Shown: positions 7,174-30,264 of the stretch, piece after piece
How the letters are laid out: each line of letters begins with the position of its first letter
How positions within the stretch are numbered: position 1 is the first letter of the stretch
DNA from: an uncultured Acidobacteriota bacterium
GTDB lineage: Bacteria > Acidobacteriota > UBA6911
Direction: 5' to 3'
Length of the DNA: 64,000 bases
NCBI GenBank assembly: GCA_964474425.1
Contig: CAYYTC010000006.1
Coordinates: forward strand, 20,503-84,502
Position numbers and translations under genes: made by a program
The notes under the pieces: generated by a model
The model's database searches: none
What the model was told of the DNA's origin: nothing
The model's input: the letters and a program-made list of their open reading frames with translations, nothing else

Positions 7174-7185
7174 CGATCGTCCCTC

Positions 7186-9166: not shown

Positions 9167-10306
9167 TTGGCGGACTCAATGGAGGCGGGTATGGCGCGCA
9201 GGAGTCGAAAGAGCAGGATACGAAGGGTGCATGCATCGATATTTTCCCGGCGCTCTCTCCCCGGCAGCGCACCCGGGACCCTGATCGTGGATCCGCATGC
9301 TCCGAAACCGGCCATACGCCTCGTATCCTTCAGCCCCGACAAGGTGATTGAAAAGCAGATCGATGATGTGCAGGATGCACGGTCCTTCGTAGGCATTGGG
9401 CCGGTTACTTGGATCAACGTGGCGGGACTCGGAGACCTGTCGGTAATCACAAAACTGGGCGAAATCTTCAACCTTCACCGGCTGGCCCTGGAAGATGTCC
9501 TCAACGTGCACCAGCGTCCCAAGGTGGAGCAGTACAAGGACTATATCTACATCGTGGTCCGGCTGGTGAAAGACGCGGAGAAATACGATTCCGAGCAGAT
9601 CAGCATTTTTCTCGGAAGAAACTTCGTGTTGAGTTTTCAGGAGCAGGCCGGCAAATATTTCGATCCCGTAATCGATCGTATCCGCGCCGGGACCGGCCGC
9701 ATGCGCACCGCCGGCACCGATCATCTGACCTATGCCCTGATCGATGCGGTCATCGACTGTCATTTCCCGATTCTGGAGCGTTTTGGAGAAACGGTGCAGT
9801 CTCTGGAGGACTCCATTGTCGCACAGCCCGACAGCCAGCTTATCGGACAGATACACGAACTGCGGCAGGGGCTGCTGACCCTGCGCCGCGTTGCCTGGCC
9901 CATGCGGGAAGCCATGGGGGTTCTATATCGCGATCCAATCCCGCTCATCGACGAGGAGGAGCGCTTCTACTTGCGGGACTGCTATGACCACATGGTGCAG
10001 ATCATAGATTTGATCGAGAATTACCGGGATGTAACCTCGGGACTGATGGAGGTGTACCTTTCAAGCATCGGCAACCGCACCAACGAAATCATGAAGGTTT
10101 TAACCATCATTTCGGCGGTGTTCATCCCTCTCACGCTCATCGCCGGAATCTACGGGATGAACTTCAACACCAAAGTCTCGCCCTGGAACATGCCGGAGCT
10201 GGAATGGATCTGGGGATATCCGTTTGCTTTGGGCCTGATGGCGCTGGTCGGGCTCATCCTCCTGCTGCTCTTCCGGTGGAAGGGCTGGCTCGGCAAGGCG
10301 AAATAG
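9167..10306 (+). CDS. corA: CorA-family Mg2+/Co2+ transporter
   Basis: 379 aa, cytoplasmic N-domain, two C-terminal TM helices with the YGMNF signature (IYGMNFNTKVSPW). An alternative start at about 9191 is possible. Confidence 0.85.
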   Translation: MADSMEAGMARRSRKSRIRRVHASIFSRRSLPGSAPGTLIVDPHAPKPAIRLVSFSPDKVIEKQIDDVQDARSFVGIGPVTWINVAGLGDLSVITKLGEIFNLHRLALEDVLNVHQRPKVEQYKDYIYIVVRLVKDAEKYDSEQISIFLGRNFVLSFQEQAGKYFDPVIDRIRAGTGRMRTAGTDHLTYALIDAVIDCHFPILERFGETVQSLEDSIVAQPDSQLIGQIHELRQGLLTLRRVAWPMREAMGVLYRDPIPLIDEEERFYLRDCYDHMVQIIDLIENYRDVTSGLMEVYLSSIGNRTNEIMKVLTIISAVFIPLTLIAGIYGMNFNTKVSPWNMPELEWIWGYPFALGLMALVGLILLLLFRWKGWLGKAK

Positions 10307-14335: not shown

Positions 14336-15724
14336 GTGCGGGTGACTGAAGGATTTAGCCGGATTGATCAGGAGCTGTGCACCGGGTGCGACAACTGCAC
14401 CGCGACATGCCCCGCCGATGCCATCAGCGGTCAAAAGTATCAACCTCACGCGATTTCCGAGGAGCGTTGCGTGAGCTGCGGGCGATGCGTTCAAATCTGC
14501 AACGCTTACGACTCGATTTTCCAGAAATACCCGACACCGCGGGACCTGAGGCTGAAGCAACGGGACCTTCCGCCCGGATTCCCTGAGCCCCTGTTTGCGG
14601 CTTATGACCGGCGCTTTACCTCGAGTGTCAAGGCGGCCCTGGCCGATCCCGGCCTTGTGGTGATGGCTCAACTGGGACCGGCCGTATGCGGGCCCCTGGC
14701 CGAGGATTTCGGTTTGCCCGCGGGATCCCTGACGGAAGGGCGGGTCGTGGCAGCGCTGAAAAAGGCCGGCTTTCGGAAGGTATATAGCTTTTCGCTTCCG
14801 GCGGCGATGGCGGTGCTCGAAGAAGCGCATGAACTTGTCGAGCGGCTGCGGGAGGGCAGAATTTTGCCCGTTATCAACTCCTCGTGTCCGGCGGGAGTCA
14901 AGTTTATCGAGCAGTCCCACCCGGAGCTGATCCACTATATTGCGGGAAATAAATCCCCGCACCAGATAGCGGGCACGCTTGTCAAGTCGCGCGCTGCAAA
15001 AATGCTCCAGCTTTCTCCGGAAAGGATTTACAGCGTTTCCATCGGCCCCTGCAATTCCCGGAAATTTGAGGCAAGCCGGCCGGAGATGGCCTCCGGAGGA
15101 CGCCGGGACATCGATGCGGTATTGACGTCCCGGGATCTGGCTCATCTGATCAAGGACCTCGGAATCGACCTGTCTTCAATGGGTGAAGAAAGCCACGACC
15201 ATGAACTCCCCCCCCTGGTCGGGATGGATAGGGTCTACGGCATCCCGGGAGACATTACCGAAGCGGTCCTGAAGGCCGGTTACGGGCTTCTCGCGCCCTC
15301 GGCGGGACAGGCGCTGGAAGTGCAGTTTACCGAAACGGAAACCGAGGGAGTCCGCGCCGCCTCCGTAAAACTGGATGCATTCAGCGTAAAGGCAGTCGCC
15401 CTTACCGGGCTGCCGAATGCGGTCCCATTTCTCGATGCGATAAAGGCCGGCAAAAGCGACATCGCGTTTCTGGAAATCCTGGCATGCCCGATGGGCTGTG
15501 TCAGCGGCGGGGGACAGCCCAAGATCCTGCTGCCCCAGGATAAAACAGCCGCCTACCTGGAACGGGCGCGGCTCAACGGTGTCCCGGATGCCCGGGCCCT
15601 GCACAGTCTCGCGCGCAACGCTGAAGTGCAGAGGATCTATCGCGAGTGTTTTGGCAGACCCTGCGGCAACAAATCGAATCACGGCATTTATACGCAGTAT
15701 GTGGAGCGAAAACTGAGCCAATGA
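14336..15724 (+). CDS. [FeFe]-hydrogenase H-domain protein (M2-type: two N-terminal ferredoxin clusters) with non-canonical L1 motif
   Basis: L2 GPCNSRKFEA and L3 EILACPMGCVSGGGQP match the H-cluster signatures MPCxxKxxE and ExMACxxGCxxGGGQP. L1 reads NSSCPAG instead of TSCCPGW. N-terminus CTGCDNCTATCP and CVSCGRCVQIC. Confidence 0.8.
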   Translation: MRVTEGFSRIDQELCTGCDNCTATCPADAISGQKYQPHAISEERCVSCGRCVQICNAYDSIFQKYPTPRDLRLKQRDLPPGFPEPLFAAYDRRFTSSVKAALADPGLVVMAQLGPAVCGPLAEDFGLPAGSLTEGRVVAALKKAGFRKVYSFSLPAAMAVLEEAHELVERLREGRILPVINSSCPAGVKFIEQSHPELIHYIAGNKSPHQIAGTLVKSRAAKMLQLSPERIYSVSIGPCNSRKFEASRPEMASGGRRDIDAVLTSRDLAHLIKDLGIDLSSMGEESHDHELPPLVGMDRVYGIPGDITEAVLKAGYGLLAPSAGQALEVQFTETETEGVRAASVKLDAFSVKAVALTGLPNAVPFLDAIKAGKSDIAFLEILACPMGCVSGGGQPKILLPQDKTAAYLERARLNGVPDARALHSLARNAEVQRIYRECFGRPCGNKSNHGIYTQYVERKLSQ

Positions 15725-15770
15725 GGAATCGGGCGGTCCTTTTCGGAAGCGGATCGCCGCGGGGCGAAAC

Positions 15771-16250
15771 ATGGGATTTTTGCTGATAACACCGGAAGAC
15801 TGCACCAGTTGCCATTCGTGCGAACTGGCCTGTTCTCTGTTTCACGAAGAGGAGTTTAACCCTGCCCGCGCCCGCGTCGAGGTTCGGACGTGGGACGACA
15901 ACACGCACTCCGCCTCCGTAATGTGCCTGCAATGTGAAGAAGCCGGATGCATGGCCATCTGCCCGGCGGGAGCCATTACTGAAGACAAAACCACAGGGGC
16001 GCGCCTGGTCAACGGGTCGAAGTGCATCAAGTGCCGGATGTGCATCCAGATCTGTCCGTTCGGCAGCAATTTCTTCGACCTCAAGGGCCGCAAAATACTC
16101 AAATGCGACCTTTGCGACGGGGACCCGCAGTGCGCGAGGGTCTGCCCCTCGGGCGCCATCGTGTACGGGGAGCGGAATACGGCGAACACGGCGAAGCGGC
16201 AGCAGGCGGCCGCCAAGCTGAAAGTAATTTCCCGGGGAGCGAGAAGGTAA
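15771..16250 (+). CDS. 4x[4Fe-4S] ferredoxin (HycB-like)
   Basis: 159 aa, four Cys clusters (CTSCHSCELAC, CLQCEEAGCMAICP, CIKCRMCIQICP, CDLCDGDPQCARVCP). Confidence 0.75.
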   Translation: MGFLLITPEDCTSCHSCELACSLFHEEEFNPARARVEVRTWDDNTHSASVMCLQCEEAGCMAICPAGAITEDKTTGARLVNGSKCIKCRMCIQICPFGSNFFDLKGRKILKCDLCDGDPQCARVCPSGAIVYGERNTANTAKRQQAAAKLKVISRGARR

Positions 16251-17563
16251 TGTTCGGTTGGTGTGGACGATTGTTGCGGGTGAATCTGACGGACGGCGCC
16301 ATCGCCAGGGAATCCCTGGACCCTGAAGCCGCCAGAACCTTTCTTGGCGGGCGCGGGCTCGGGACCCGGCTGCATGCAAAAGAGGTCTCTTCCTCCTGCG
16401 AACCGCTGGGCGCCGCAAACCATCTGGTGTTTATCACCGGCCCTCTGACGGGCACCGTCGCGCCTAACGGCGGCCGCTACACGGTTGTCACCCGCGTGCC
16501 GCCCGAAGGCTCCATTGCCGCGGCCAGCATCAGCGGGAAATGGGGTTCGGAGCTCAAATTCGCCGGATTCGACGGGATCATCGTCGAGGGCAGAGCGGCT
16601 GAACCGTCCTATCTCTGGATTAAGGACGGCCATGCGGAATTGCGCTCCGCCGCGCGCGTTTGGGGCAAGCCGGTGAGGGAAACGACCGACCTGCTGGTCG
16701 CGGAAACGCACGAGAGATCGGTCGTTTCCTGTATCGGCCCCGCGGGCGAGAACGGCGTGAAAGGGTCGGTAATCGTCAGCGATTATTTTTCGGCTGCAGG
16801 CGGAGCGGGCGCGGGCCGGGTCATGGGCTCGAAGAATCTAAAGGCCATCGTCGTCTGCGGCACAATCGGGTTCCGTGCAGCCGATCACAGGCGGTTTCTC
16901 AAGCTGGCCACGGAATTCCGGACCTGGATGAAGACCAAACCGATTGCCGCAAGGGGCGTGCGTCTGCATGATTGCTTTCTCCGGGCGGACAGTGTCGCGT
17001 GGGATGCTGCGGCGCCCGAATCCAGGCCGGCCCGAACCAGGGGCTGCTTCGGTTGCGCAACTTCTTTTTCGTCTTTTACATTCGATGACAAAGTCAGGGC
17101 CCTGCCGCTGCTTGCGGGATCGCCGCCCGCCGAACTGGGCGAGAGGCTGAGGGAATACCGGCATTTTGCCGACCTGGGGCTGGATTTTGTCGCAGCCAAG
17201 ACCTCCCTGGCTTCTCTCGGCAAAGAGGCCGAAGCGGATCCGGCCGGGTTTGCCCGAAAGCTGGCCGCCGGCGAAATGGAAGGAACCGGAAGCATAAACG
17301 GCAATCGCGCGATGGACCGGGGAGCCTGTTTTGCTTCCGGTTACGCGGTTGCCCCGAATATCTCCCAGGGCAACGGACAGGACAGGGCGCTGAGCTGCCT
17401 GGTAAGCATTCTTGATTCCGCGGGATTGTGTCCGTTCCTTGCCGCCGGGATAGAAACAGGCACGATCGCCGGGCTGCTGAATGCGGCCACGGGAATCGAT
17501 TTTTCGCAGGAAGAAATCCTGCAGGCGGGGCAGCGCATCAGCCTGCCCGGCAACACCGACTGA
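16250..17563 (+). CDS. aldehyde:ferredoxin oxidoreductase (AOR) family protein, truncated (N-terminal AOR domain plus shortened C-terminal region)
   Basis: Start is TAATG-coupled to the preceding ferredoxin. N-domain MFGWCGRLLRVNLTDG...GGRGLG...LVFITGPLTG...KNLKAIVVCGT is typical AOR. C-terminus keeps CFGC and the DSAGLCPF (DSxGLCxF) cluster-ligand motif, but the protein is about 437 aa versus about 600 for canonical AORs. Confidence 0.65.
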   Translation: MFGWCGRLLRVNLTDGAIARESLDPEAARTFLGGRGLGTRLHAKEVSSSCEPLGAANHLVFITGPLTGTVAPNGGRYTVVTRVPPEGSIAAASISGKWGSELKFAGFDGIIVEGRAAEPSYLWIKDGHAELRSAARVWGKPVRETTDLLVAETHERSVVSCIGPAGENGVKGSVIVSDYFSAAGGAGAGRVMGSKNLKAIVVCGTIGFRAADHRRFLKLATEFRTWMKTKPIAARGVRLHDCFLRADSVAWDAAAPESRPARTRGCFGCATSFSSFTFDDKVRALPLLAGSPPAELGERLREYRHFADLGLDFVAAKTSLASLGKEAEADPAGFARKLAAGEMEGTGSINGNRAMDRGACFASGYAVAPNISQGNGQDRALSCLVSILDSAGLCPFLAAGIETGTIAGLLNAATGIDFSQEEILQAGQRISLPGNTD

Positions 17564-17628: not shown

Positions 17629-19038
17629 TTGGCATTCACAGGGGGTGAAGACTTGTTCCTGTTGCCTGTACTGTTAGCTGCGGCAGCAATGCTGGGTACC
17701 CTGGCCGTAGTGGTTCGCAGCTATGGCGCTGTCTGGTCCTTTGACCTGGGCACCGTGCCCTGGCTGGCCGGCCGGGAGGCCTTATTCGGCATCCGTATCG
17801 ACGGATTGAGTTCCCTGATGCTGCTGGCTATCACCGTAGTCGGCTTTCTGATCATCCTTTACTCCGGCGGATACGTGAGCGCCCGCAACCGCGAGCACCC
17901 GTCCAACGAAGGACAGGGACGGTACTATTTCTTCATGCTGCTCTTCGTTGCCGCGATGATCGGCCTGGTGATTTCGCCCAATTTCTTTCAGTTGTTCATT
18001 TTTTGGGAACTGACGACGCTCTGCTCCTGGGGTCTGATAGCCTTCTACCGCGACAGGGAAGCGCTGGGTTCCGCTTATAAGGCGCTGTTGATCACCCATG
18101 CCATGGGGCTCTTCCTCGAAGCTGGCATCATTCTCGTTTACGTCAACACCGGTTCATTCGCCTTTCCCGCCATCGAGCAGCTTTCCCCCGCGCTGAAGAC
18201 ACTGGCCGTGGTTTTCTTTGTGATCGCGGCGCTGGCGAAGGCCGCGCAGTTTCCGTTCTTCACGTGGCTTCCTACGGCCATGGCGGCCCCGACTCCGGCC
18301 AGCGCCTATCTTCATGCCGCGGCAATGGTCAAGGCCGGCATCTATCTGATAGCCCGGCTGCTGATCAGTATGAGCGTGTTCCCGCCCAAGGTCGGTGTTG
18401 TTCTCGGCGCCCTGGCGATGGTGACCATGCTGACCGCCGTGCTGCTCTACTTCGTTCAGGACGACTTGAAAAGGCTTCTTGCCTACTCCACCATTGCAAA
18501 TCTGGGCTACATGGTCCTGGGTCTTTCGCTCGGCAGCCTGGGATCCAGCCTGGCTTTGCGTGGCGGCCTGCTTCATCTCATCGGGCACTCATTCACCAAA
18601 AGCCTGCTTTTCCTGGCGGTCGGCGCGATATCGTTCGCGACCGGGACGCGCAGGATCTCAACGCTGAGCGGCCTCAACAAGAGAATGCCGCTGACTTCTT
18701 TGGCCTTCGTCCTCGGGGCTCTCGCCATCAGCGGCGTCCCTCCCTTCAACATGTTCTGGAGCAAGTTTTTCATAATTGCCGGCGCTTTTCAGCTGCATAC
18801 GGGTTGGGGGTGGACGCTCGGGCTGCTGGCACTGGTGGAAAGCGTCGCGGGATTTGCATGGTTTCTGCATGTCGTGCACAAGGTTGTTTTCGGCGCCCCG
18901 GCCCCGGCAGCCGAAGGAGCGCAGGATCCGCCCGCCGTTATGGCGATACCCTTGCTGGCGCTGATGGGCCTAATCCTGCTTTCGACCGTTTTCGCCTTGC
19001 CGATTATTGACCGGCTGGTCGGAGGATTGGGACGATGA
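17629..19038 (+). CDS. hydrogenase-4 antiporter-like membrane subunit (HyfD/NuoM/MnhD-like)
   Basis: 469 aa polytopic protein of the NuoL/M/N fold. Start codon uncertain. Confidence 0.8.
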   Translation: MAFTGGEDLFLLPVLLAAAAMLGTLAVVVRSYGAVWSFDLGTVPWLAGREALFGIRIDGLSSLMLLAITVVGFLIILYSGGYVSARNREHPSNEGQGRYYFFMLLFVAAMIGLVISPNFFQLFIFWELTTLCSWGLIAFYRDREALGSAYKALLITHAMGLFLEAGIILVYVNTGSFAFPAIEQLSPALKTLAVVFFVIAALAKAAQFPFFTWLPTAMAAPTPASAYLHAAAMVKAGIYLIARLLISMSVFPPKVGVVLGALAMVTMLTAVLLYFVQDDLKRLLAYSTIANLGYMVLGLSLGSLGSSLALRGGLLHLIGHSFTKSLLFLAVGAISFATGTRRISTLSGLNKRMPLTSLAFVLGALAISGVPPFNMFWSKFFIIAGAFQLHTGWGWTLGLLALVESVAGFAWFLHVVHKVVFGAPAPAAEGAQDPPAVMAIPLLALMGLILLSTVFALPIIDRLVGGLGR

Positions 19039-21062
19039 CCGCAATGCAAGTATTCGCCGGCTCCATGGCTGTTCTGGCCGCGACCTCCGTTCTTACGCTG
19101 CTGACGGCAGATCGCCGAAAAGTGGCCGGCGGGATTAATTTTGCCGGCACCGCCTGTGCGGCTCTGGGGATGCTGTGGCTCGCGGCCAGGGCGCTGTTTG
19201 CGGGCCCGCTGGAATTCGGGTATGGAAGCGTCCGTGTTCTGGGCCTGAGCGCACAGCTGGATTTTCGCATTGACGGCCTGAGCGCCCTTTTTCTCTCGAT
19301 TATCGCAATCCTTGTCACGGGCTCCGCTCTCTACAGCATCGGCTATCTCGATCACTACCGCCACGAAGGGCTGCGAAGGTACTATTTCCCCTTTCCGTTG
19401 TTCATGGCCGGCATGCTGGCGGTGGTGACCGCTGCCGACTGGTTCTGGTTCCTGGTTTTCTGGGAGGTCATGACGCTGACGTCCTATTTCCTGGTGGTCT
19501 TCGAAAACGACAACAAGGAAAACCTTTCGGCCGGATTCCTATATTTTTTCATGACGCATCTCACGTCGGCCGGGCTGATGGTCGCGGTGATGTTCCTGGC
19601 GAACAGGTCCGGCTCATTTGCCTTTGCGGCGCTTCCGGACCTGTTTAACAACCTTGCCTACACGAACCCGGCCGGCCTTCACCTCCTCCTGCTCCTCTTC
19701 TTCATCGCATTCGGGACCAAGGCGGGGATGTATCCCCTCGGTGTCTGGCTGCCCGCCGCGCATCCCGCGGCTCCGGCCAGCGTCAGCGCACTGCTCTCGG
19801 GCGTCATGATCAAAATCGGGGTCTACGGAATGCTGCGGGTCTTCGTCTGGATGCTCCCGGTAGTTTCGGCGGCCGTCCTCTGGGGAACCGTTATCGCCAC
19901 CTTCGGGATTATTTCCATGGCGGTCGGGACACTGCGCGCGCTGGGTGAACACGACTGCAAAAGGCTGCTGGCCCAGAGCAGCATCGGCCAGATGGGATAC
20001 ATCCTGCTCGGTCTGGGGCTCGGCATGGTTTTCATGTCCCGCAGCCCGGTTTTCGGCGTGATCGCGCTGATCGGCTGCCTCTACCACATTGTCAATCATG
20101 CCTGCTTCAAATCCCTGCTCTTTTTCAATACCGGTTCACTGTTGTTCCGGACAGGCACGCGGAACCTGGATAAGATGGGCGGCATGATACAGCTGATGCC
20201 GGTGGCCGGGGCATGCGCCATCGTTGGAGCGCTTTCCATCGCCGGAGTCCCCCCTTTCAACGGCTTCGTCAGCAAATGGCTTCTCTACCAGAGCGCCATC
20301 TTTGGGAAGCCTGCATCCGTTTTCATCGTGTACGCCGTCATCGCAATTTTCATGAGCACGGTTACCCTGGCCTATTTCATCAAGTACCTGGGCACCGCCT
20401 ATCTCGGCACGATGCCGGAACGTTTTGCCGGCAGCCCCCACGGATCTCCCCGGTCGATGGAAATCGTGCAGCTCGTGCTCGCGGCCGGATGCCTGATGCT
20501 TGGGATCTACCCGGCGACCGTGGTTCTGGTCCTGCTGGGAGTCCTGGAACCTGCCCTGAGCATAGCCAATTCCCGTCTGGCCCAGGGGGCGCTCGGCGCT
20601 TTGCCGTGGCTCGGGATGAAGCTGGACCTGAATTCTGTAAGCACGGCCGCTGCGGGCCCCGCCATCATACTGGCGGCGCTCGCCGCCTGTGCAGGTATTG
20701 CGTATCTGATATATCGCAGCGTCCAGGTGGAGAGCCGGCCCGCATCCATCTGGAATTGCGGGGAAGTTGTTTCCGACGAAGCGGTGCGCTATCGCGCCAG
20801 CAGTTTTTACAAGCCGTTCCGGAACCTGATCAGCCCTGTGTACCGGAAAATCCGGTGGCCCCGGATTTCTCCGCCTCAATCCTTCGCGCGCAGCCTGGAC
20901 CTGGACCGCTGGTTGTACTTTCCAATAGGTTCTGCCTTTGTCCGCATCGGCAGGGCTTTCAGCAGGATTCATAACGGCGTGCCTCAGTTCTACCTCCTAT
21001 GGCAGGTGGTGGGGCTCGTCCTTTCCGTTATGTTTGTTTTCTGGTTGATGGGAGGAAAATAA
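19035..21062 (+). CDS. hydrogenase-4/formate hydrogenlyase antiporter-like membrane subunit (HyfB/HycC, NuoL-like)
   Basis: 675 aa, about 16 TM, conserved WLPxAHxAPxPVSALL motif. ATGA overlap with the upstream gene. Confidence 0.85.
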   Translation: MTAMQVFAGSMAVLAATSVLTLLTADRRKVAGGINFAGTACAALGMLWLAARALFAGPLEFGYGSVRVLGLSAQLDFRIDGLSALFLSIIAILVTGSALYSIGYLDHYRHEGLRRYYFPFPLFMAGMLAVVTAADWFWFLVFWEVMTLTSYFLVVFENDNKENLSAGFLYFFMTHLTSAGLMVAVMFLANRSGSFAFAALPDLFNNLAYTNPAGLHLLLLLFFIAFGTKAGMYPLGVWLPAAHPAAPASVSALLSGVMIKIGVYGMLRVFVWMLPVVSAAVLWGTVIATFGIISMAVGTLRALGEHDCKRLLAQSSIGQMGYILLGLGLGMVFMSRSPVFGVIALIGCLYHIVNHACFKSLLFFNTGSLLFRTGTRNLDKMGGMIQLMPVAGACAIVGALSIAGVPPFNGFVSKWLLYQSAIFGKPASVFIVYAVIAIFMSTVTLAYFIKYLGTAYLGTMPERFAGSPHGSPRSMEIVQLVLAAGCLMLGIYPATVVLVLLGVLEPALSIANSRLAQGALGALPWLGMKLDLNSVSTAAAGPAIILAALAACAGIAYLIYRSVQVESRPASIWNCGEVVSDEAVRYRASSFYKPFRNLISPVYRKIRWPRISPPQSFARSLDLDRWLYFPIGSAFVRIGRAFSRIHNGVPQFYLLWQVVGLVLSVMFVFWLMGGK

Positions 21063-22760
21063 ATGACGACTTCGGCGGATCTGATTGCAGCGGTACAGGA
21101 ACGGTTTCCCGGAGCCCTGGTATCCAGCGAGCAGCCGAGCCGGGACCGGCTGTTTTTGACGGTAACACGGGAAAGCATGCCGCGGGTTGCGGACTACCTG
21201 TTCAATTCTGCGGGGGCAAGACTCATCCTGTCCTCGGGGACGGACAAGAGTCCGATCAACGGGACTTACGAGGTGACCTACATTTTCTGCCTGGATCAGG
21301 ACAATCTGATCCTCGCCGTCAAGGAAATCGTGGACCCCGCCGACCCGCGCATACCATCGCTGACCAACATCATTCCGGGGGCGGACTGGCACGAGCGCGA
21401 GATGTACGACATGATGGGCATCGTTCCCCAGGGGCATCCGGATCCGCGGCGCCTGGTGGTTTCCGACGACTGGCCTGAAGATGTCTACCCGCTGCGCAAG
21501 GAGGTTCCGTACAACTTCAAGCCGCCGCGCGTTGCGGAAGTCAAGCCGCCGATGCGTGAGCCCAGGGAGGGTGAGAAGCAGGCTACGATCCTGAATGTCG
21601 GTCCTTTTTTCCCGACGCTGGAAGAGCCGGCCTATTTCCGCCTGTACGTGGAGGGGGAGAAGATTGTCGGCAGCGATTATAGGGGCTTTTTCGCCCACCG
21701 CGGCATTGAAAAGCTGACCGAAACCGTGATGGACTACAACCAGGTGCCCTTTATCGCGGAGCGCATCTGCGGAATCTGCGGTTTTGTTCACAGCGCCACT
21801 TACTGCATGGCGGTGGAGCAGGCGGCCGGGATTGAAACCCCGCCGCGCGCAAAGTATATCCGCTCCATCATGCTGGAGCTGGAGCGCGTGCACAGCCATC
21901 TGCTATGGCTGGGCCTGGCCGCGCACTATCTCGGCTTCGATACCGTTCTGATGCAGGCCTGGAGAATCCGCGAACCGATCATGTGGCTGACCGAGGAAAT
22001 TACCGGCAACCGCAAAACCTTCGGAATGAACCTGCCGGGCGGAGTGCGCCGCGATATTGATGCCGCCACGGCGGAAAAAATACTCAAGACGCTCGAAAAG
22101 GTGGACTCGGAGACCCGGGAGTTGATCGAAGCCGCGGTCGAGGACAACTCGCTGAAAATGCGCCTGGAACATGTGGGCGTTCTCAGCAAGGAGGATGCCC
22201 GCAAGGTTTGCGTGGTGGGGCCCACCGCCCGGGCTTCCGGCGTGGCGATCGATGTCCGGAAGGACCGCCCCTATCTGGCCTATCCCGACCTGGATTTCAA
22301 AGTCGCGGTTCAGGAAGGCTGCGACATATGGGCCCGGACGCTGGTGCGCGCCGAAGAGGTCTTCAGCGCAATTTCCCTGATGCGGCAGATGATCGAAAAG
22401 ATGCCCTCCGGGGAAATCATGGCTGATGTCGGTCCGATTGCGCCGTGGCGCGAGGGTATCGCGACCGTTGAAGCCCCGCGCGGCGAGTGTTGCCACTACG
22501 TGATAACGGGGCCGGACAACCGGCCGTACCGCTGGCGCGTCCGCGCCTCGACCTATCCCCAGCTCCAGTCCATTCCCAGGATGCTGGACAACATGAGCGT
22601 GGCCGATTTCCCCATCATCGTGGGCAGCATCGATCCCTGCTTTTCCTGCACGGAGAGGGTTATCACGGTGGATGCAAGAAGCCGGAAGATCCGGACCTAT
22701 TCCGGGGAAGAGCTTTTGGCCTTGAGCCGAAGAAACAGCGGACAAGGGAGACGTTCGTGA
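21063..22760 (+). CDS. group-4 [NiFe]-hydrogenase large subunit (HycE/HyfG type, NuoC-NuoD fusion)
   Basis: N-terminal Ni-Fe ligand motif RICGICGFVHS and C-terminal DPCFSCTERV. 565 aa with a NuoC-like N-terminal segment. Confidence 0.9.
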   Translation: MTTSADLIAAVQERFPGALVSSEQPSRDRLFLTVTRESMPRVADYLFNSAGARLILSSGTDKSPINGTYEVTYIFCLDQDNLILAVKEIVDPADPRIPSLTNIIPGADWHEREMYDMMGIVPQGHPDPRRLVVSDDWPEDVYPLRKEVPYNFKPPRVAEVKPPMREPREGEKQATILNVGPFFPTLEEPAYFRLYVEGEKIVGSDYRGFFAHRGIEKLTETVMDYNQVPFIAERICGICGFVHSATYCMAVEQAAGIETPPRAKYIRSIMLELERVHSHLLWLGLAAHYLGFDTVLMQAWRIREPIMWLTEEITGNRKTFGMNLPGGVRRDIDAATAEKILKTLEKVDSETRELIEAAVEDNSLKMRLEHVGVLSKEDARKVCVVGPTARASGVAIDVRKDRPYLAYPDLDFKVAVQEGCDIWARTLVRAEEVFSAISLMRQMIEKMPSGEIMADVGPIAPWREGIATVEAPRGECCHYVITGPDNRPYRWRVRASTYPQLQSIPRMLDNMSVADFPIIVGSIDPCFSCTERVITVDARSRKIRTYSGEELLALSRRNSGQGRRS

Positions 22761-23659
22761 CAAACATCGCTATCGGCGTCTTCAATATACTGCTGGTCCT
22801 CCTTGCCGCGCCTCTGCTGGACGGCGTTTTGCGAAAGGTGCGGGCTTTGATTCATTCGCGGCAGGGGCCTCCCGTGTTGCAGACCTATTACGACCTGGCC
22901 AAGTTGATGGTGAAAGAGGACCAGAGCGCGGTCAACAATTTCCTGTTTAATGCCGCGCCGATTGTTTGCCTGGCTTCCGTCCTGCTGGCCGCCCTTTTTA
23001 TTCCCATGGGCGGGGTGGTTCCGCTGGGATTTGCCGGGGACGCGCTGGTGCTGATGTACATCCTGACGCTGGCCCCGATCTTCCTGTGCCTGGGCGGTAT
23101 GGCTTCGGGCAGCCCTTACGCATATGTCGGCGCGAGCCGGGAAATAATGATGCTGATGGTGGTCGAGCCGGTTCTTGCGATCACGCTGATTGCCACGGCG
23201 GTCAAGGCCAACTCGCTGCTGCTTGCGAACTGCATCGAACGGTACGTGTCCGGCCCCCCGGATATTTCTCTGATTATCTGCGCCATTGCCTTCTTTCTCG
23301 CCCTCCAGCCGGAAGTCGCCAAGGTTCCTTTCGACCTGGCCGAAGCCGAACAGGAAATCATGGAGGGCCCGCTGGTCGAATATTCGGGCCGCAAGCTGGC
23401 GCTGCTCAAGTGGTCGATGTATTCCAAGCAGATTGTATTTATCGCCCTGCTGGCCGGAGTCTTCCTCCCCTGGCCCAGGACGGGATTTTTGCCGTTGAGC
23501 GTCGTATTCACGCTTTTGAAGGTCCTGGGGATCGCCGTGCTGGTGGAGGTGATCGCCCTGGTGTTCCCGCGGCTTAAGATCAACCAGGCGATCCGCTATT
23601 TCGCCATAGTGATCGCCGTCGCCTTGACGGGTTTGATACTTGCCGTCATGGGTCTATAA
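22757..23659 (+). CDS. formate hydrogenlyase membrane subunit HycD/HyfC (NuoH-like)
   Basis: GTG start overlapping the hycE stop (GTGA). N-terminus ...LLDGVLRKVRALIHSRQGPPVLQTYYDLAKL is a classic NuoH/HycD signature. Confidence 0.85.
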   Translation: MTNIAIGVFNILLVLLAAPLLDGVLRKVRALIHSRQGPPVLQTYYDLAKLMVKEDQSAVNNFLFNAAPIVCLASVLLAALFIPMGGVVPLGFAGDALVLMYILTLAPIFLCLGGMASGSPYAYVGASREIMMLMVVEPVLAITLIATAVKANSLLLANCIERYVSGPPDISLIICAIAFFLALQPEVAKVPFDLAEAEQEIMEGPLVEYSGRKLALLKWSMYSKQIVFIALLAGVFLPWPRTGFLPLSVVFTLLKVLGIAVLVEVIALVFPRLKINQAIRYFAIVIAVALTGLILAVMGL

Positions 23660-23677
23660 GGGATTCGGGAAACAACG

Positions 23678-24205
23678 ATGATACCGCTTTTGAAAGAAGC
23701 CTGGATTTGCCTGCGGGCCGGCCGCGTGACGCTGCCGTATCCGCTGAAACCGACGAAAGCTCCGCCTCGATTCCGCGGGCGCCCGAGCATCGATGGAGAC
23801 AAATGCATCGGGTGCGGCGCCTGCGCGGAAGTGTGTCCTCCACGGTTGATTACGGTCACCGATGAGGGCGCTACCCGTCGCATTTCCATGGATTATTCCC
23901 GGTGCACCTACTGCGCGCGCTGTCAGGAAATATGTCCGGTCCAGAGCGCCAGGCTCACCGAGGATTTTGAGGACGCCACAGCCGACCGCGCCGACTTGAC
24001 GGTCGCAGTGGAATTGGAACTCGCTCCGTGCAGGAACTGCGGCACGCCGTTCATCACCCGGCGAATGCTGGCCAAGCTGTCCGATGAATTCTCCCCTCCC
24101 TGGATGAAGGAAAAGCTTGAAGCTCCGGACTGGTTCCAGCTGTGCCCGGATTGCCGGCTCGAAAAAACAGGGGCCGCCATAGACAGGAGCGTCAAACATG
24201 AGTAG
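23678..24205 (+). CDS. formate hydrogenlyase 2x[4Fe-4S] subunit HycF/HyfH (NuoI-like)
   Basis: CIGCGACAEVCP and CTYCARCQEICP motifs, 175 aa. Confidence 0.85.
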   Translation: MIPLLKEAWICLRAGRVTLPYPLKPTKAPPRFRGRPSIDGDKCIGCGACAEVCPPRLITVTDEGATRRISMDYSRCTYCARCQEICPVQSARLTEDFEDATADRADLTVAVELELAPCRNCGTPFITRRMLAKLSDEFSPPWMKEKLEAPDWFQLCPDCRLEKTGAAIDRSVKHE

Positions 24206-24863
24206 CTATGCGATCATGTACATCAGCCTGCTCATGATTGTGACTTCGCTGGTGGCGATGGAGTGGCGCAGGCTTCCGGAAGCCGTTCACACATACCAGG
24301 TCCAATCGGTGCTGATTGCGCTGATCTTCGCCATTTATGCCTATTCGCTCAAAAATCCCGCGTTGTACTACTGGAGCGCCACCGCGCTGGTCAGCAAGGG
24401 GATCGTGGTTCCGTGGCTGCTTCGACGCTACGTTTTGAAAGTGCACGCAAAGGAAACCCCGCCGCTGCTGAGCCTGCTGCCGTCCCAGGCTTTCGCGATC
24501 CTGGTTTCGCTGCTGGCATTCGGCTGGGCCTTTAAGCATCACGCGGACCTGGTGCTCCTGCCCGGACTGGCCGGGGAGCCCTACCGCATGAATTCCGCGG
24601 TGGCCGCGACGGTGCTCGCCATCGGCTTTTTCGCCTTGTTGACGAGGAAGGACGCCTTCAAGATCGTCATCGGCCTGTGCCTGCTGGAGAACGGCGTTCA
24701 TATGAGCCTGATCAGCCTGGCTCCGTCCATCCCGGAAACAGCCCTGATCGGCGTGGTGACCGACGTGGTTGTCTCGGTCCTTATGCTTCTTTATATCGTC
24801 ACCGGGGTTTATCGATCGGCGGGTTCCCTCGACACATCCAACATGGCGAAGTTGCGTGGCTGA
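24198..24863 (+). CDS. hydrogenase-4 membrane subunit HyfE-like
   Basis: 221 aa, about 6 TM, position and size equivalent to HyfE between HycF and HyfF. Confidence 0.7.
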   Translation: MSSYAIMYISLLMIVTSLVAMEWRRLPEAVHTYQVQSVLIALIFAIYAYSLKNPALYYWSATALVSKGIVVPWLLRRYVLKVHAKETPPLLSLLPSQAFAILVSLLAFGWAFKHHADLVLLPGLAGEPYRMNSAVAATVLAIGFFALLTRKDAFKIVIGLCLLENGVHMSLISLAPSIPETALIGVVTDVVVSVLMLLYIVTGVYRSAGSLDTSNMAKLRG

Positions 24864-24878
24864 AAGAGGATTCTCAAA

Positions 24879-26483
24879 GTGACAGAATCGATGCTATTAA
24901 TCTGGCTGTTCCTGATACCCGCAATAGCGGCGCTAGCGGAATATGCCCTGGGCAGAAAATATCCGGCTTCGGCCGGCAGGATCGCGATCCTGGGATCGAC
25001 GGCGGCATTCGGCGTTTCCGTGGCGATGGTCTGCCGGCTGCTGGGCGGCGATCGCCTGGTCGCAATGGGACACCAGCTGCACGCCGACGCTTTCGCGGGC
25101 TTTGTGGCCTTGGTCGTTTCCTTCGTGGGGTGGGCCACGACGATCTTCGCCTATCCATACCTGCGCCATGAAGTGAAGGAAGGGAAAGTCGCCGTCGAGC
25201 GCCTGCCGCTTTACTATGTCTGGAGCATGGTGTTCCTCAGCACGATGACGGCGGTGACCGTCAACAACAACATCATCATGATGTATGTGCTCGTCGAGGC
25301 AACGACCCTGGCATCCGCTCTCCTGGTGACCTTTTACTGGAAGCCTGAATCCCTGGAGGCCGGCTACAAATACCTGCTGCTGTGTTCGGTAGGCATTACG
25401 ATCGGCCTGTTGGGCTGCGTGATCATTTACGCTTCGGCCGTCCCCCTGGTTGGCGGCGCCAATGCGATGCTGATAACCGAAATCGCCAAGGTCGCCGGAA
25501 AGTTCCCGCCTATGGTCGTGCTCGTGGCGGGAGTCCTCCTGATCATCGGTTTTGGATCCAAGGCGGGTTTTGTACCCTTCCATGCGTGGCTGCCCGACGC
25601 TCATTCGCAATCCCCCAGCCCGGTCAGCGCCCTGCTGTCCGGTGTGACCATAAAGGTTGCGATTTACGCCATCGCACGGATAGCAACGCTTTTTTACCCG
25701 GGTCACAGCGCGCTGGGAACCTTCGGGATTATCCTGGGGGCGGTCACGATGCTGGCGGGGATAGTGATTGCCTATCAGCAGACCGACCTGAAGCGCATGC
25801 TGGCCTACAGCAGCGTCAGCCAGATGGGCTATATAATACTCGGGCTCAGCATCGGCACCTACCTCGGCTTCTACGGCGCCATCTATCACCTGCTCAACCA
25901 CGCGGTCAACAAGGCGATGCTCTTCCTGTGCAGCGGCATACTGCTGTATTCCTTCGGCACAACAGACATGCAGCTATTGGGCGCGAAGAAGCACCGCCGT
26001 CTGACGGCGGTCTGTTTTTTCATCGGTGCGCTCGGGATCGGGGGCATGCCGCCCCTGAATGGGTTCTGGAGCAAATTCGGAATTTACGTGGCGGCGGCCC
26101 AGGCGCACCTGTGGTGGGCCTTTGGCATCGCCCTATTCACCAGCCTGCTGACGCTCGCGGTTTTGATCCGGGCCGGCGCCCGCATGTTTCTGCAGGACAG
26201 CCACGCCGTCCACGCCTACGAATTGCCTTTTCAGCCTGCGGCAATTGCCGCCCCAACCGCGGCCGGCGCGATAACGGCCATGCAGGATGCTCACGCGTCG
26301 GGCGGGGCAGGGCCCGAAAGAGCGCATCCCTGCCCGGTGGCCATGAATGCCGTGATTGTGGCCATGACGCTGCTGATCCTCGCTACGGGCCTGAATCTGG
26401 GATTCGTGAACCGGCTGATCGATTTATCAGTCAAAGCTCTGCTGCAGCAGATGGCGGGAGGTTCGGTCGATGTCACTCTATAA
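24879..26483 (+). CDS. hydrogenase-4 antiporter-like membrane subunit HyfF (NuoN/L-like)
   Basis: 534 aa, GTG start, conserved HAWLPDAHSQSPSPVSALLSG motif. Confidence 0.8.
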   Translation: MTESMLLIWLFLIPAIAALAEYALGRKYPASAGRIAILGSTAAFGVSVAMVCRLLGGDRLVAMGHQLHADAFAGFVALVVSFVGWATTIFAYPYLRHEVKEGKVAVERLPLYYVWSMVFLSTMTAVTVNNNIIMMYVLVEATTLASALLVTFYWKPESLEAGYKYLLLCSVGITIGLLGCVIIYASAVPLVGGANAMLITEIAKVAGKFPPMVVLVAGVLLIIGFGSKAGFVPFHAWLPDAHSQSPSPVSALLSGVTIKVAIYAIARIATLFYPGHSALGTFGIILGAVTMLAGIVIAYQQTDLKRMLAYSSVSQMGYIILGLSIGTYLGFYGAIYHLLNHAVNKAMLFLCSGILLYSFGTTDMQLLGAKKHRRLTAVCFFIGALGIGGMPPLNGFWSKFGIYVAAAQAHLWWAFGIALFTSLLTLAVLIRAGARMFLQDSHAVHAYELPFQPAAIAAPTAAGAITAMQDAHASGGAGPERAHPCPVAMNAVIVAMTLLILATGLNLGFVNRLIDLSVKALLQQMAGGSVDVTL

Positions 26484-26967
26484 AACGCTGGTCGAGAAAT
26501 TTTTCAGGCGCTCCTTATGGGTCTACCATGCGAATGCAGGCGGATGCAACGGGTGCGACATCGAGGAGATCAACGCATTCACTCCTTACTACGATGCGGA
26601 GCGGTTCGGGCTGAAGCTGGTGGGCTCGCCGCGGCATGCCGATATCCTGCTGGTTTCAGGGCCTGTGACGCGCAACGTGGAATCACGGCTGAAGCTTCTT
26701 TATGAAGCGGTGCCGAATCCGAAGGTGGTGATCGCGTGCGGGTCTTGTGCCGTGGGCGGCGGGCTGTGGTTTGATTCGTATCACGTGCTCGGGGGGTGCG
26801 ATAAAGTCATCCCGGTGGATTTCTATATCCCGGGGTGCCCTCCCAGGCCGGAAGCGATCCTTTGGGGCGCAGCCGTTGCCATGGGCCTGGTCAAGGGGAA
26901 GGCGCAGCCTTACCGCTACCGCCAGGAGGATGCGGAGGCCGAGGCGAAGGCGAAGCTGGCTTCATGA
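26470..26967 (+). CDS. group-4 [NiFe]-hydrogenase small subunit HycG/HyfI (NuoB-like)
   Basis: Proximal-cluster ligands CNGCDIE, GSCAVGGG, PGCPP. 165 aa. Confidence 0.9.
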   Translation: MSLYKTLVEKFFRRSLWVYHANAGGCNGCDIEEINAFTPYYDAERFGLKLVGSPRHADILLVSGPVTRNVESRLKLLYEAVPNPKVVIACGSCAVGGGLWFDSYHVLGGCDKVIPVDFYIPGCPPRPEAILWGAAVAMGLVKGKAQPYRYRQEDAEAEAKAKLAS

Positions 26968-27446
26968 TGCGCGAAGCGGCGGAGTTGGAAAAGGGACTGA
27001 AGCAGCGGCTGAAAGGCAGGGTGCTGCTGGTAGGCGCCGGCAACACGCTTCGCGGCGACGATGGGGCAGGTCCGGCGGTTGTGTCCCTGTTGGAAGGCAG
27101 AGTGACGGCGAGCCTGCTCGATGCCGGGGAAGCGCCGGAAAACTATTCGGGCAGGATCCTGGCTGAACAGCCGGATACGGTTGTCCTGATTGATGCGGCC
27201 GATTTTGGGGCGGCGCCGGGGGATCTGGCCATTCTGGAAGCGGAAGATATGGCGAAGGTGGGCGTGTCCACGCATCGGATCCCTTTGGAGGTTTTGTTCC
27301 GCTACATAAGGGAAAATAGCGGAGCGGACATGTTTGCGCTCGGGATACAGCCGGCCGGGATCGGATTTGGAGAATCCCTGAGCCCCGCCGTATCAAATTC
27401 GGTAAAGGCGCTGGCGGAGATCTTGCGGCGGCTGCTCCCGGCCTAA
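26964..27446 (+). CDS. hydrogenase maturation endopeptidase HycI-type
   Basis: LLVGAGNTLRGDDGAGP motif. ATGA overlap with hycG. Confidence 0.8.
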   Translation: MMREAAELEKGLKQRLKGRVLLVGAGNTLRGDDGAGPAVVSLLEGRVTASLLDAGEAPENYSGRILAEQPDTVVLIDAADFGAAPGDLAILEAEDMAKVGVSTHRIPLEVLFRYIRENSGADMFALGIQPAGIGFGESLSPAVSNSVKALAEILRRLLPA

Positions 27447-27476
27447 GAAAAAACTAGGAACGCAGATTTTTATTTT

Positions 27477-27508
27477 CAGCGTTCAACGTTCAAACGTTCA
27501 ACGTTTTT
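27477..27508 (+). repeat. tandem heptamer repeat (CGTTCAA)x3 followed by a T-run, in the hycI-hycB intergenic gap
   Basis: cagCGTTCAACGTTCAAACGTTCAACGTTTTTat. Contains self-complementary AACGTT cores, so small hairpins followed by TTTTT are possible. Confidence 0.5.
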
Positions 27509-27521
27509 ATCGGCAGGTGTA

Positions 27522-28049
27522 ATGATGAACACACTGGTTATCGCGGATCCGGGAAAATGTATCGGCTGCCGCACCTGTGAGGTGGCCTGTGTGCTGGCCC
27601 ATTCCGCACCGGATGCATTGTCAAAACTGGCTCCCGCATTCTTTATTCCCCGCATGAAGGTGGTCAAAACATCCAGGGTGAGCACTCCGGTCCAGTGCCG
27701 GCAATGCGAGGATGCTCCCTGCGCCAAGGTTTGCGCTACGGGCGCGCTGATCCACAGCCACGACTCGATACAGGTGATCCAGTCGCGCTGTATCGGCTGC
27801 AAGAGCTGTGTCATGGCCTGTCCCTACGGCGCCATGGAAGTGGTGACGCACGAATCGTTCGCCGACCGGCGTCCCCCGGCAGGCGCCAACGTTGTGGAAG
27901 CTTATAAGTGCGACCTCTGCGTCCACCGCTCCCAGGGCCCGGCCTGCATTGAAGTGTGCCCGACCAAAGCGCTCTACACCATCGACGCCAAGGTGCTCGA
28001 AGACAAGGCGCGCAAGCGGCGGGAGCAGGCGGCGCTTGCCCAATTGTAA
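27522..28049 (+). CDS. formate hydrogenlyase ferredoxin subunit HycB/HyfA-type (4x[4Fe-4S])
   Basis: 175 aa with CIGCRTCEVAC, CRQCEDAPCAKVC, CIGCKSCVMACP, CDLCVHRSQGPACIEVCP. Confidence 0.8.
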   Translation: MMNTLVIADPGKCIGCRTCEVACVLAHSAPDALSKLAPAFFIPRMKVVKTSRVSTPVQCRQCEDAPCAKVCATGALIHSHDSIQVIQSRCIGCKSCVMACPYGAMEVVTHESFADRRPPAGANVVEAYKCDLCVHRSQGPACIEVCPTKALYTIDAKVLEDKARKRREQAALAQL

Positions 28050-28119
28050 AAGGAAGAAGCCGGGAGCCGGAATTTGAAAGCTGTTTTTTCCCGGCTTCTC
28101 AATCATTCACACGAAGAGG

Positions 28120-30264
28120 ATGGAAGTGATGTCGGAAAAAGTGCTGACCGTATGTCCCTATTGCGGCGCCGGGTGCATGCTCAACCTGCTGGTTGACAAC
28201 GGCACGATTGTGGGAGCTGAACCTGCGCCCGGACGGACCAATCAAAGCGAGCTCTGCCTGAAGGGCTACTATGGCTGGGATTTTCTCAACGATACCAACC
28301 GTCTCACGCCGCGATTGAAGAAGCCCCTGATCCGCCGCCGCCGGGACGGCAAATTCGAGGAAGCCTCGTGGTTTGAGGCCATCGATTTTGCGGCCGGCAA
28401 GCTGCAGGAGATCAAGCACAAATACGGGCCGGATGCGATCATGCTCACCGGATCTGCCCGTGGACCGGGGAACGAAGCCAACTACGTCATGCAGAAGTTC
28501 GCCCGCGCGGTGATCGGCACAAACAATATCGATCACTGCGCCCGCGTCTGACATGCCCCTTCCGTGGCCGGGCTGGCCGCGACGCTGGGTAACGGGGCGA
28601 TGAGCAACTCCATCCCTGAAATCGAGGACACGCGGTGTGTCTTTATCTTCGGATATAACGCCGCCGATTCTCATCCGATTGTGGCGCGCCGCATCGTCAA
28701 TGCGAAACAGAAGGGCGCCAAGATCGTTGTGGTCGACCCGCGCATGACGGAGTCGGCGCGGATCGCTGACCTGTGGCTGCCGATACGCAACGGTACCAAC
28801 ATGGTCCTGGTGAATGCGTTCGGATATGTGCTGATCGAGGAAGGTCTGTATAACAGGGACTATGTCGCCAGCTATACCCAGGGCTTTGAGCAGTACAAGG
28901 CCATTGTTTCCAAATACACTCCCGAGTACGCGGAACAGGTTACGGGGATCCCCGCCAAAGATATACGCGAGGCGATGAGGATTTACGCGGCGGCTCCGAG
29001 CGCCTTCATCCTGTACGGCATGGGCGTGACGCACTATGGACAGGCGGTCGATGTCGTCAAGGGCCTGTCCGGCCTGGCGCTGCTTACGGGCAACTTCGGC
29101 CGGCCCAATGTCGGGATCGGCCCCGTGCGCGGCCAGAACAACGTCCAGGGAGCCTGCGATCACGGCGCGCTTCCCAACGTTTTCCCCGGATACCAGCCTG
29201 TTACGGACGAAGCCATACGCGCCAAGTTCGAAAAAGCCTGGGGCGTCTCCAGGCTGCCGGACAAGGTGGGTTGCACGCTGACGGATGTCCCCCACCTGGT
29301 TAAGGAAGGCAAGCTGAGGGCCTACTACATTTTCGGCGAGGACCTGGTTCAGACCGATCCCGATTCCGCTTCCCTCAGGGAAACCCTGAAGAGCATGGAG
29401 TTTGTTATTGTGCAGGATATCTTCATGAACAAGACCGCCCTGCATGCCGACGTGATTTTCCCCGCGACATCGTGGGGGGAGCACGAAGGGACCTATTCCA
29501 CGGCCGACCGGGGCTTCCAGCGCTTCCGCAAAGCCCTGGAGCCCAAGGGGGATGTGAAGACGGACTGGGAGATTATCTCCATGATGGCTACGGCCATGGG
29601 CTATCCCATGAAATACAGCAACACCGAGGAGATCTGGAACGAAATGCGTTCCCTGTGCCCGTCTTTTGCGGGTGTTACCTACGAAAGACTCGATAAGCTG
29701 GGCACCCTGCAATGGCCGTGCCCCAGCGAGGATCATCCCGGCACTCCCTATCTTTACGCGGGCAACAAATTCAATACGCCCGACGGCAAAGGACTGCTTT
29801 TTGCCGCGGAGTGGCGGCCGCCGCTCGAGCAGCCCGATAAGGACTACCCTCTGGTTTTATCGACCGTCCGCGAGGTCGGGCATTATTCCGCGCGCACCAT
29901 GACCGGCAACTGCGCCGCTCTGCAGGTCCTGGCGGATGAGCCGGGATATCTGCAGATCAGCGGCAAGGACGCCGAACGCCTGGGAATCCGGGACCAGGAA
30001 CTGGTCTGGATTTCGTCGCGCCGCGGCAAAGTGATCAGCCGGGCTCAGGTGACCGATCGCGTCAATATTGGCGCGGTATACATGACGTATCAGTGGTGGG
30101 TGGGCGCCTGCAACGAGCTGACCATTCATCACGTGGATCCGATATCCAAAACCCCGGAATACAAGTATTGCGCCGTGGCGGTGGAAAAGATAGACGACCA
30201 GGAGCAGGCCGAACGCTACGTTCAGGAGGAATACAGTCGTTTCAAAACCGCCATGAACATATAG
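28120..30264 (+). CDS. fdhF: formate dehydrogenase H (FdhF-type, molybdopterin), selenocysteine-containing; UGA at 28549-28551 is read as Sec
   Basis: N-terminal CPYCGAGC [4Fe-4S] motif. The two supplied ORFs (28120..28551 and 28564..30264) are in the same frame and separated only by TGA. Context NIDHCARV-U-HAPSVAGL matches the E. coli FdhF Sec140 region (...HCARV-U-HGPSVAGL...). Confidence 0.9.
28563..28581 (+). promoter_or_regulatory. candidate bacterial SECIS hairpin 11 nt downstream of the fdhF UGA
   Basis: CGUGGCC-GGGCU-GGCCGCG (7-bp stem including one G-U, 5-nt loop), placed as in known bacterial SECIS elements. Confidence 0.5.

Follow-up and report, generated by a model that had tools for sequence, protein, structure and literature searches.

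Does the TGA that interrupts the fdhF reading frame of an uncultured Acidobacteriota bacterium stop translation, or does it encode selenocysteine (Sec)? The question is raised by a 64,000-nucleotide stretch of contig CAYYTC010000006.1 (GenBank assembly GCA_964474425.1), called 'the window' below and numbered from its first letter. On its plus strand, an in-frame TGA at 28549-28551 ends one open reading frame (ORF, 28120-28551) and shares its frame with a second one (28564-30264). A preliminary description, made from the sequence alone, had taken the two ORFs as a single selenoprotein gene for formate dehydrogenase H (FdhF), with a hairpin placed past the UGA where a bacterial selenocysteine insertion sequence (SECIS) would be expected. 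Our analysis leads to the same interpretation: we put at about 0.93 the probability that the UGA is a genuine selenocysteine codon of fdhF, accompanied by a SECIS hairpin and located in a formate hydrogenlyase operon.

The TGA lies at the selenocysteine position of FdhF

Read through the TGA, the translation contains IDHCARV, the TGA and then HAPSVAGLAATLGNGAM; over a longer stretch it reads NNIDHCARV, the TGA and HAPSVAGLAATLGNGAMSNS. Residues 6-712 of the product align with residues 2-709 of Escherichia coli FdhF (PDB 1aa6) at 1043 bits. In this alignment, which the preliminary description had proposed as a check around U140, the TGA stands opposite the X of the PDB sequence, that is, opposite U140. 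Residues H141, R333 (within PVRGQNNVQG) and K44, as well as the four N-terminal Fe-S cysteines (CxxCxxxC...C), are conserved. The TIGR01591 profile is covered from end to end (positions 1-672 of 672), with a score of 915.1 bits for a cutoff of 666.25. These matches bear out the claim that the two ORFs are one FdhF selenoprotein gene.

Two in-frame ATGs are present at 28120-28131. The first (28120) would give a product of 714 aa with Sec at residue 144, the second (28129) a product of 711 aa with Sec at residue 141. The second is probably the start, because relatives begin at the equivalent methionine (M-A-E-K-V-L-T-V, for MSEKVLTV in the window) and several of them have no methionine further upstream; the motif AGAGGA is found 8 nt before it. 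The annotated start at 28120 would then be three codons too long.

Selection was estimated against eight acidobacterial relatives, for most of which the synonymous divergence (dS) exceeds 1. The ratio of nonsynonymous to synonymous divergence (dN/dS) is 0.02-0.10 for the codons before the UGA and 0.03-0.09 for those after it. The 570 codons past the UGA have therefore been translated throughout the history of the lineage, and the statement that fdhF is not a pseudogene stands, purifying selection being visible on either side of the UGA.

A competing explanation is that fdhF is a pseudogene or a split gene, in which translation really ends at the TGA and the hairpin simply follows from the amino-acid sequence. 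Gene callers do divide fdhF, and report for its second part a 566-aa product (P0001) starting from a GTG at 28564. This explanation has to accommodate a TGA placed exactly at the catalytic Sec position and the low dN/dS downstream of it; the downstream part, moreover, needs no ribosome-binding site or start of its own. Further evidence on both sides is given below.

A hairpin downstream of the UGA is conserved in UGA-type genes

The hairpin consists of a 5' arm CGUGGCC (28563-28569), an apical loop GGGCU (28570-28574) and a 3' arm GGCCGCG (28575-28581). Its seven pairs include one wobble, U28565-G28579. This 7-bp stem with its 5-nt loop, starting 11 nt past the UGA, agrees base for base with what had been described, and, as had been anticipated, it forms in the minimum-energy fold of 28549-28600. 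Pair probabilities range from 0.89 to 1.0 in contexts of 52, 121 and 201 nt, and the isolated hairpin has a folding energy of -12.1 kcal/mol. The distance from the UGA to the apical loop is 18 nt (28552-28569), which places the loop Gs 19-21 nt past the UGA.

The minimum-energy fold also extends the hairpin by a lower helix, GCCCC 28555-28559 paired with GGGGC 28594-28598. We rejected this extension as evidence, since four of the five pairs show no or almost no variation, which conserved coding positions alone would produce, and the single wobble-wobble pair fails to form in 15 of the 22 sequences.

Orthologous loci were then compared. A set of 160 loci was obtained from one scan of species-representative genomes and one of metagenomes, and more were added by exact-protein look-ups. 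Identical segments were counted once, each unique segment being 63 nt long; stems were counted in 36 UGA-type and 116 Cys-type segments, and loops in 41 UGA-type segments. The codon aligned with E. coli U140 is TGA in 54 loci (41 unique segments) and TGC or TGT in 126 loci. The TGA loci are spread over Acidobacteriota, Negativicutes, Clostridia, Aeromonas/Vibrio/Shewanella and Enterobacterales.

Four or more contiguous pairs that enclose a loop at the glycine codon were found in 36/36 unique UGA-type segments, compared to 5/116 unique Cys-type segments; on the first 80 loci, the difference in stem between the two types gave a Mann-Whitney P of 8e-12. The helix also covaries. In a 22-sequence alignment, its covariation score was 0.335, compared to 0.116 after shuffling, and it was 72% paired, compared to 60% after shuffling; on either measure, none of the 500 shuffles was as high, and the named helix scored above every slid register. 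The covarying pairs in alignment A1 are 18-30 (AU 9, GC 6, CG 5), 19-29 (GC 15, UA 5) and 21-27. The arms themselves differ between groups: GUGGCC/GGCCGC in Acidobacteriota, GUCUCC/GGAGAC in Aeromonas, Vibrio and Shewanella, GUAGCU/AGCUAC in some clostridia, GGUGGCC/GGUCACC and GUUGCC/GGUAAC in metagenome contigs, and GUUGCA/UGCAC in the E. coli type.

The two types of gene also differ in the protein that they encode. After SVAGL, UGA-type genes encode AA, AY, ET or HR; in Cys-type genes the residues are mostly QV or QA. The difference is systematic. Evidently, the sequence of the FdhF protein has itself been adapted to form the stem. We take the comparative evidence to be decisive for a recoding hairpin, as judged from the sequences compared. 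It also bears on the split-gene explanation, under which one would have to account for a TGA conserved in 54 loci over several phyla, and for Cys-type orthologues which lack the hairpin and carry other residues (Q/M/T) after SVAGL.

Cysteine codons were also encountered at the Sec position within Acidobacteriota. Other fdhF genes, of the Acidobacteriaceae type and 72-78% identical, have TGC or TGT there (L007 at 10430, L008 at 5334, and L090-L092); they lack the hairpin and carry Gln after SVAGL. Switching from Sec to Cys has therefore taken place inside the phylum. On seven other contigs (L063, L088, L116, L124, L126, L128 and L141), UGA-type and Cys-type fdhF paralogues lie within about 6 kb of each other, and the hairpin is found in the UGA-type copy only.

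Comparison with known SECIS elements

The consensus model of bacterial SECIS elements (PMC13188914; bSECISearch criteria) allows loops of 3-9 nt on upper stems of 4-16 bp, requires at least one G among loop nucleotides 1 and 2, usually with a G or U after it, and sets a distance of 16-37 nt from the UGA to the apical loop and a minimum free energy of at most -7.5 kcal/mol. The window has a loop of 5 nt, a stem of 7 bp, GGG, 18 nt and -12.1 kcal/mol, respectively. The model is a permissive one, and nothing of substance differs from it here. Itoh et al. describe the typical element as a stem of 6-8 bp with a conserved G about 20 nt past the UGA.

A closer comparison is offered by the fdhF SECIS of E. 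coli and Salmonella (Rfam SECIS_2, RF01988), which serves the same UGA codon in an orthologous protein and whose upper stem also begins 11 nt on. In the alignment, the window hairpin falls in the columns occupied by the E. coli-type loci L057 and L061; the position expected for a SECIS, on which the preliminary description had relied, is thus the one found, with the same distance from the UGA and the same overlap with the S-V-A-G-L codons. The E. coli-type sequence quoted in PMC4489274 shares these codons and a loop set on a Gly codon starting with GG, and in both organisms FdhF is the partner of a formate hydrogenlyase. The differences include a 5-nt loop closed by C-G in the window, compared to the 4-nt GGUC loop closed by A-U in E. 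coli; another stem sequence and register; Ala-Ala after the Leu instead of His-Gln; and a partner hydrogenase that is hyf-like (HyfB/D/E/F) rather than hyc-like.

The nearest counterparts are the fdhF genes of other Acidobacteriota (L001-L004, L081-L087, L164, L165, L167, L168 and L169-L175), whose FdhF proteins are 81-89% identical to that of the window. Their stem is identical, (C/U/G)GUGGCC...GGCCGC(A/G/C), and they have the same hyf-hycI-hydN-fdhF synteny. Their loop is GGUCU, except in L165/L166, which have the GGGCU of the window.

Observations that weigh against selenocysteine insertion

Several observations do not favour the selenocysteine interpretation. Dinucleotide shuffles of 28549-28600 fold equally well (z = -0.21). 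The peptide was also recoded synonymously, with codons drawn according to the codon usage of the operon itself and the stem scored in the same register: 8% of the draws had at least 7 pairs, and 21% at least 6. The hairpin alone is not statistically unusual, since the peptide SVAGLAA already favours one, and the case for a SECIS therefore rests on comparison. Both results, an energy not above shuffles and a hairpin fairly probable given the peptide, count in favour of a split gene, and the same may be said of the Sec machinery not being seen in the window. Together with the gene calls, they are outweighed in our opinion by the position and conservation of the TGA, the selection past it and the behaviour of the Cys-type genes, and we hold a pseudogene or split gene to be highly improbable.

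The element also departs from described ones. At gathering thresholds, an Rfam search found no SECIS in the window: SECIS_2 (RF01988) scored 18.3 bits for a gathering score of 70, and SECIS_3 (RF01989) 34.0 bits for a gathering score of 63 (28546-28604, E = 2.5e-6 in a 201-nt search). The SECIS_3 alignment is full-length (model positions 1-59 of 59) and takes in both GUC-UGA and the hairpin; most of the lower-stem pairs in the model do not form here. Relatives whose loop is canonical also fall below the SECIS_3 gathering score, at 35.5 and 21.8 bits, so that the search does not discriminate and the threshold reflects a narrow seed rather than a defect of the window element. There is no bulged U17 as in E. 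coli (PMC8659212), and U28565 wobbles with G28579 instead. Last, the loop is GGGCU and not GGUCU: the equivalent of E. coli G23 is present, and the equivalent of U24 is G28572.

The Sec machinery, which the preliminary description expected elsewhere in the genome, is assumed: no selA, selB, selD or tRNA-Sec was found in the 64-kb window. ARAGORN and Rfam detected only tRNA-Cys(GCA) and tRNA-Gln there. NCBIfam scans of the long ORFs of the window gave no sel genes, the sole selB match being a sub-cutoff one to the GTPase domain of IF-2 (59543-62305), and this domain was also the only match when E. coli SelA, SelB and SelD were searched by tblastn on the window. Nor was a tRNA-Sec seen near fdhF in the 23 UGA-type loci of the genome scan that were examined. 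The purifying selection past the UGA lends the expected machinery indirect support, and Acidobacteria have been recorded as having selenoproteins (PMC1794560).

One may therefore ask whether the UGA is read through without SelB and tRNA-Sec, for instance by a Cys- or Ser-inserting opal-suppressor tRNA, an allo-tRNA or a tRNA of the selC* type. Allo-tRNAs that resemble tRNA-Sec, possible missense or nonsense suppressors, are reported in Acidobacteria (PMC5389517); a Cys tRNA of the selC* type, for which opal suppression has been proposed, is known from other phyla (PMC5389517). The window holds no such tRNA, only the two tRNAs named above. Moreover, the hairpin and its conserved G-rich loop are kept specifically in UGA-type genes, which is the signature of SelB-dependent decoding. 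Suppression of this kind is the least credible of the explanations considered.

A side observation concerns linkage. In Vibrio/Shewanella loci, a selB homologue was encountered upstream of the UGA-type fdhF, some 9-10 kb away (L046 41-1204, L047 1-489); such selB-fdhF linkage was not seen at any acidobacterial locus scanned.

The apical loop variant

Among the 41 unique UGA-type segments, the loop is GGUCU in 38, GGUUU in 1 and GGGCU in 2. The glycine codon of the loop is GGU in 39 of the 41; Cys-type genes use all four glycine codons. GGU is kept in UGA-type loops though it is the rarest glycine codon of the operon (31/296), and the loop U is therefore normally under selection. When this U is replaced, it is by G only, and never by C or A.

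Two simple accounts of the GGG codon found in the window (28570-28572) were discarded. A sequence error is rejected because GGG is likewise present in a Logan assembly of run SRR8925802 (L163, 50-52). GGGCU seemed unique to the window after the first two scans (1/41 UGA-type loci), and this too is rejected: the loop occurs on the same stem in a second genome, GCA_040961015.1 (L165, codon at 10007-10009), with which a separate Logan assembly (L166) agrees. In a neighbour-joining tree of FdhF, L165 groups with GGUCU sequences (92% identity) and not with the window (88.7%), so the change from U to G may have arisen twice.

In crystal structures of SelB with SECIS, the G23-U24 dinucleotide contacts winged-helix domain 4. 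A review lists U17, G23 and U24 as the non-variable positions of the E. coli element (PMC8659212); with a G in place of U24, insertion could be less efficient here. This opens the possibility that the SECIS is real but impaired, GGGCU weakening the binding of SelB, and that fdhF is a low-efficiency or recently decaying selenoprotein gene. The retention of GGUCU in 38/41 segments in spite of the rarity of GGU, and the non-variable status of U24, speak in favour of such an impairment. It is harder to reconcile with the recurrence of GGGCU in L165, reproduced by L166, and with the place of L165 among GGUCU bearers, which suggests two origins. The consensus model also accepts a G followed by G or U (PMC13188914), a rule that the loop of the window fits, and fdhF is without relaxed constraint. 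We find an impaired element improbable, and read GGGCU as a variant that is tolerated, possibly slightly weaker, and not as a sign of decay.

A more specific proposal would be that GGGCU is a functional SECIS variant of two origins, and that SelB in these organisms may tolerate a G at a loop position which is U in nearly all other UGA-type fdhF genes sampled. This proposal is tentative, and to our mind doubtful. It is also possible that GC mutation pressure is eroding the element, in which case Sec insertion would be measurably weaker. If the specific proposal is correct, GGGCU would constitute a natural experiment on SelB-SECIS specificity in one soil/peat clade of Acidobacteriota. The recurrent substitution could serve to examine how strict SelB is about this nucleotide, the only matter of mild specialist interest here.

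Proposed mechanism

The gene identity, the UGA position, the hairpin and its covariation, the association with UGA-type genes, the purifying selection past the UGA and the synteny were all demonstrated here; the mechanism is transposed from the E. coli and Moorella systems. It would follow the standard bacterial SelB/Sec-tRNA(Sec) pathway (PMC4605307, PMC5311926). SelB loaded with Sec-tRNA(Sec) would attach to the hairpin by its C-terminal winged-helix domains, and the tethered complex would let the tRNA read the UGA ahead of release factor 2. The selenocysteine thus inserted would become a ligand of the Mo/W centre, and FdhF would pass the electrons of formate, via HydN, to the membrane-bound hyf-type [NiFe] hydrogenase whose genes directly precede fdhF, the whole forming a formate hydrogenlyase.

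This is a textbook arrangement, known in kind, and there is no new biology in the recoding event. Its main value is for annotation: ORFs 28120-28551 and 28564-30264 should become a single selenoprotein gene that carries a translation exception at 28549-28551. This gene also marks the organism as a probable selenium user endowed with formate hydrogenlyase.

Operon and genomic context

Coordinates of the features are reported in Table 1. The fdhF gene is the last of a plus-strand hyf-type operon, in which the formate hydrogenlyase gene set is complete: hydrogenase subunits, NuoH-like and antiporter-like membrane subunits, Fe-S subunits, endopeptidase and FdhF. The order ending in hycI-hydN-fdhF was also found in the Acidobacteriota loci L001-L004, L081, L082, L087, L164 and L165. 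The closest relatives are Acidobacteriota metagenome-assembled genomes and contigs from peat and soil metagenomes.

Table 1. Features of the fdhF locus and of the operon upstream of it (window coordinates)
Feature	Position	Strand	Basis
fdhF, formate dehydrogenase H catalytic Mo/W-bisPGD subunit, single selenoprotein gene (probable start)	28129..30264	+	Translation, alignment, TIGR01591
UGA selenocysteine codon (predicted), equivalent of E. coli FdhF U140	28549..28551	+	Opposite X140 of PDB sequence; TGA in orthologues
Spacer from UGA to SECIS upper stem, 11 nt, codons His-Ala-Pro and UC of Ser	28552..28562	+	Direct reading; same spacing in all aligned UGA-type orthologues
SECIS upper stem-loop (predicted), within codons Ser-Val-Ala-Gly-Leu-Ala-Ala	28563..28581	+	Fold, pair probabilities, covariation, UGA-type association, SECIS_3 match
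hyf/hyc-type formate hydrogenlyase operon, directly upstream of fdhF	17629..28049	+	NCBIfam scans
HyfD-like	17629-19038	+	NCBIfam scan
HyfB	19035-21062	+	NCBIfam scan
[NiFe] large subunit HycE/NuoCD	21063-22760	+	NCBIfam scan
NuoH-like	about 22757-23659	+	NCBIfam scan
HycF/HyfH	23678-24205	+	NCBIfam scan
HyfE	24198-24863	+	NCBIfam scan
HyfF	24879-26483	+	NCBIfam scan
Small subunit HycG	26470-26967	+	NCBIfam scan
Protease HycI	about 27024-27446	+	NCBIfam scan
HydN	27522-28049	+	NCBIfam scan

A closed contig of 6.89 Mb (L164; ERZ21831019 ctg34094c, 4389992-4411659) encodes an FdhF that is 84.6% identical over its full length, and is syntenic with the window from the hyf genes to beyond fdhF (glgB, aminotransferase, Nramp, MgtE). 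Among the available genomes, it would be the best one to search for the sel genes of the lineage.

Sec ([NiFeSe]) variants of group 4 hydrogenases have recently been reported (PMC13582414). The adjacent [NiFe] large subunit was considered as such a variant and rejected, as it is of the Cys type, with the ordinary motifs RICGICGFVH and DPCFSC. A scan of the window for long ORFs linked in pairs by an in-frame TGA yielded no selenoprotein candidate other than fdhF. The TGAs at 19008 and 24861, which were traced, and the other pairs, judged from the ORF map, correspond to adjacent gene ends or to GC-rich open frames. The TGA at 24861 is the stop of hyfE; it is in frame with hyfF, which starts 18 nt further on (24861-24881), and the homologues in relatives are also separate ORFs, so that it is read as adjacency and not as recoding.

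An inverted repeat of 11 bp (AGAAGCCGGGA ... UCCCGGCUUCU), whose loop is rich in U, is present at 28055-28099, in the 70-nt spacer between hydN and fdhF. Its energy is modestly better than that of shuffles (z = -1.5), and it may be an attenuator, a processing site or a product of chance.

On the same strand, immediately upstream of the hyf genes (14336-17563), are an [FeFe]-hydrogenase-like Fe_hyd_lg_C protein (14336-15724), a 4Fe-4S ferredoxin (15771-16250) and a protein resembling aldehyde:ferredoxin oxidoreductase (16022-17563), in which AFOR_N is complete and the match to AFOR_C is short and weak. Such a trio is an unusual neighbour for a formate hydrogenlyase. Further upstream, an RND efflux system with an outer-membrane factor (2586-8478) assigns the window to a diderm genome.

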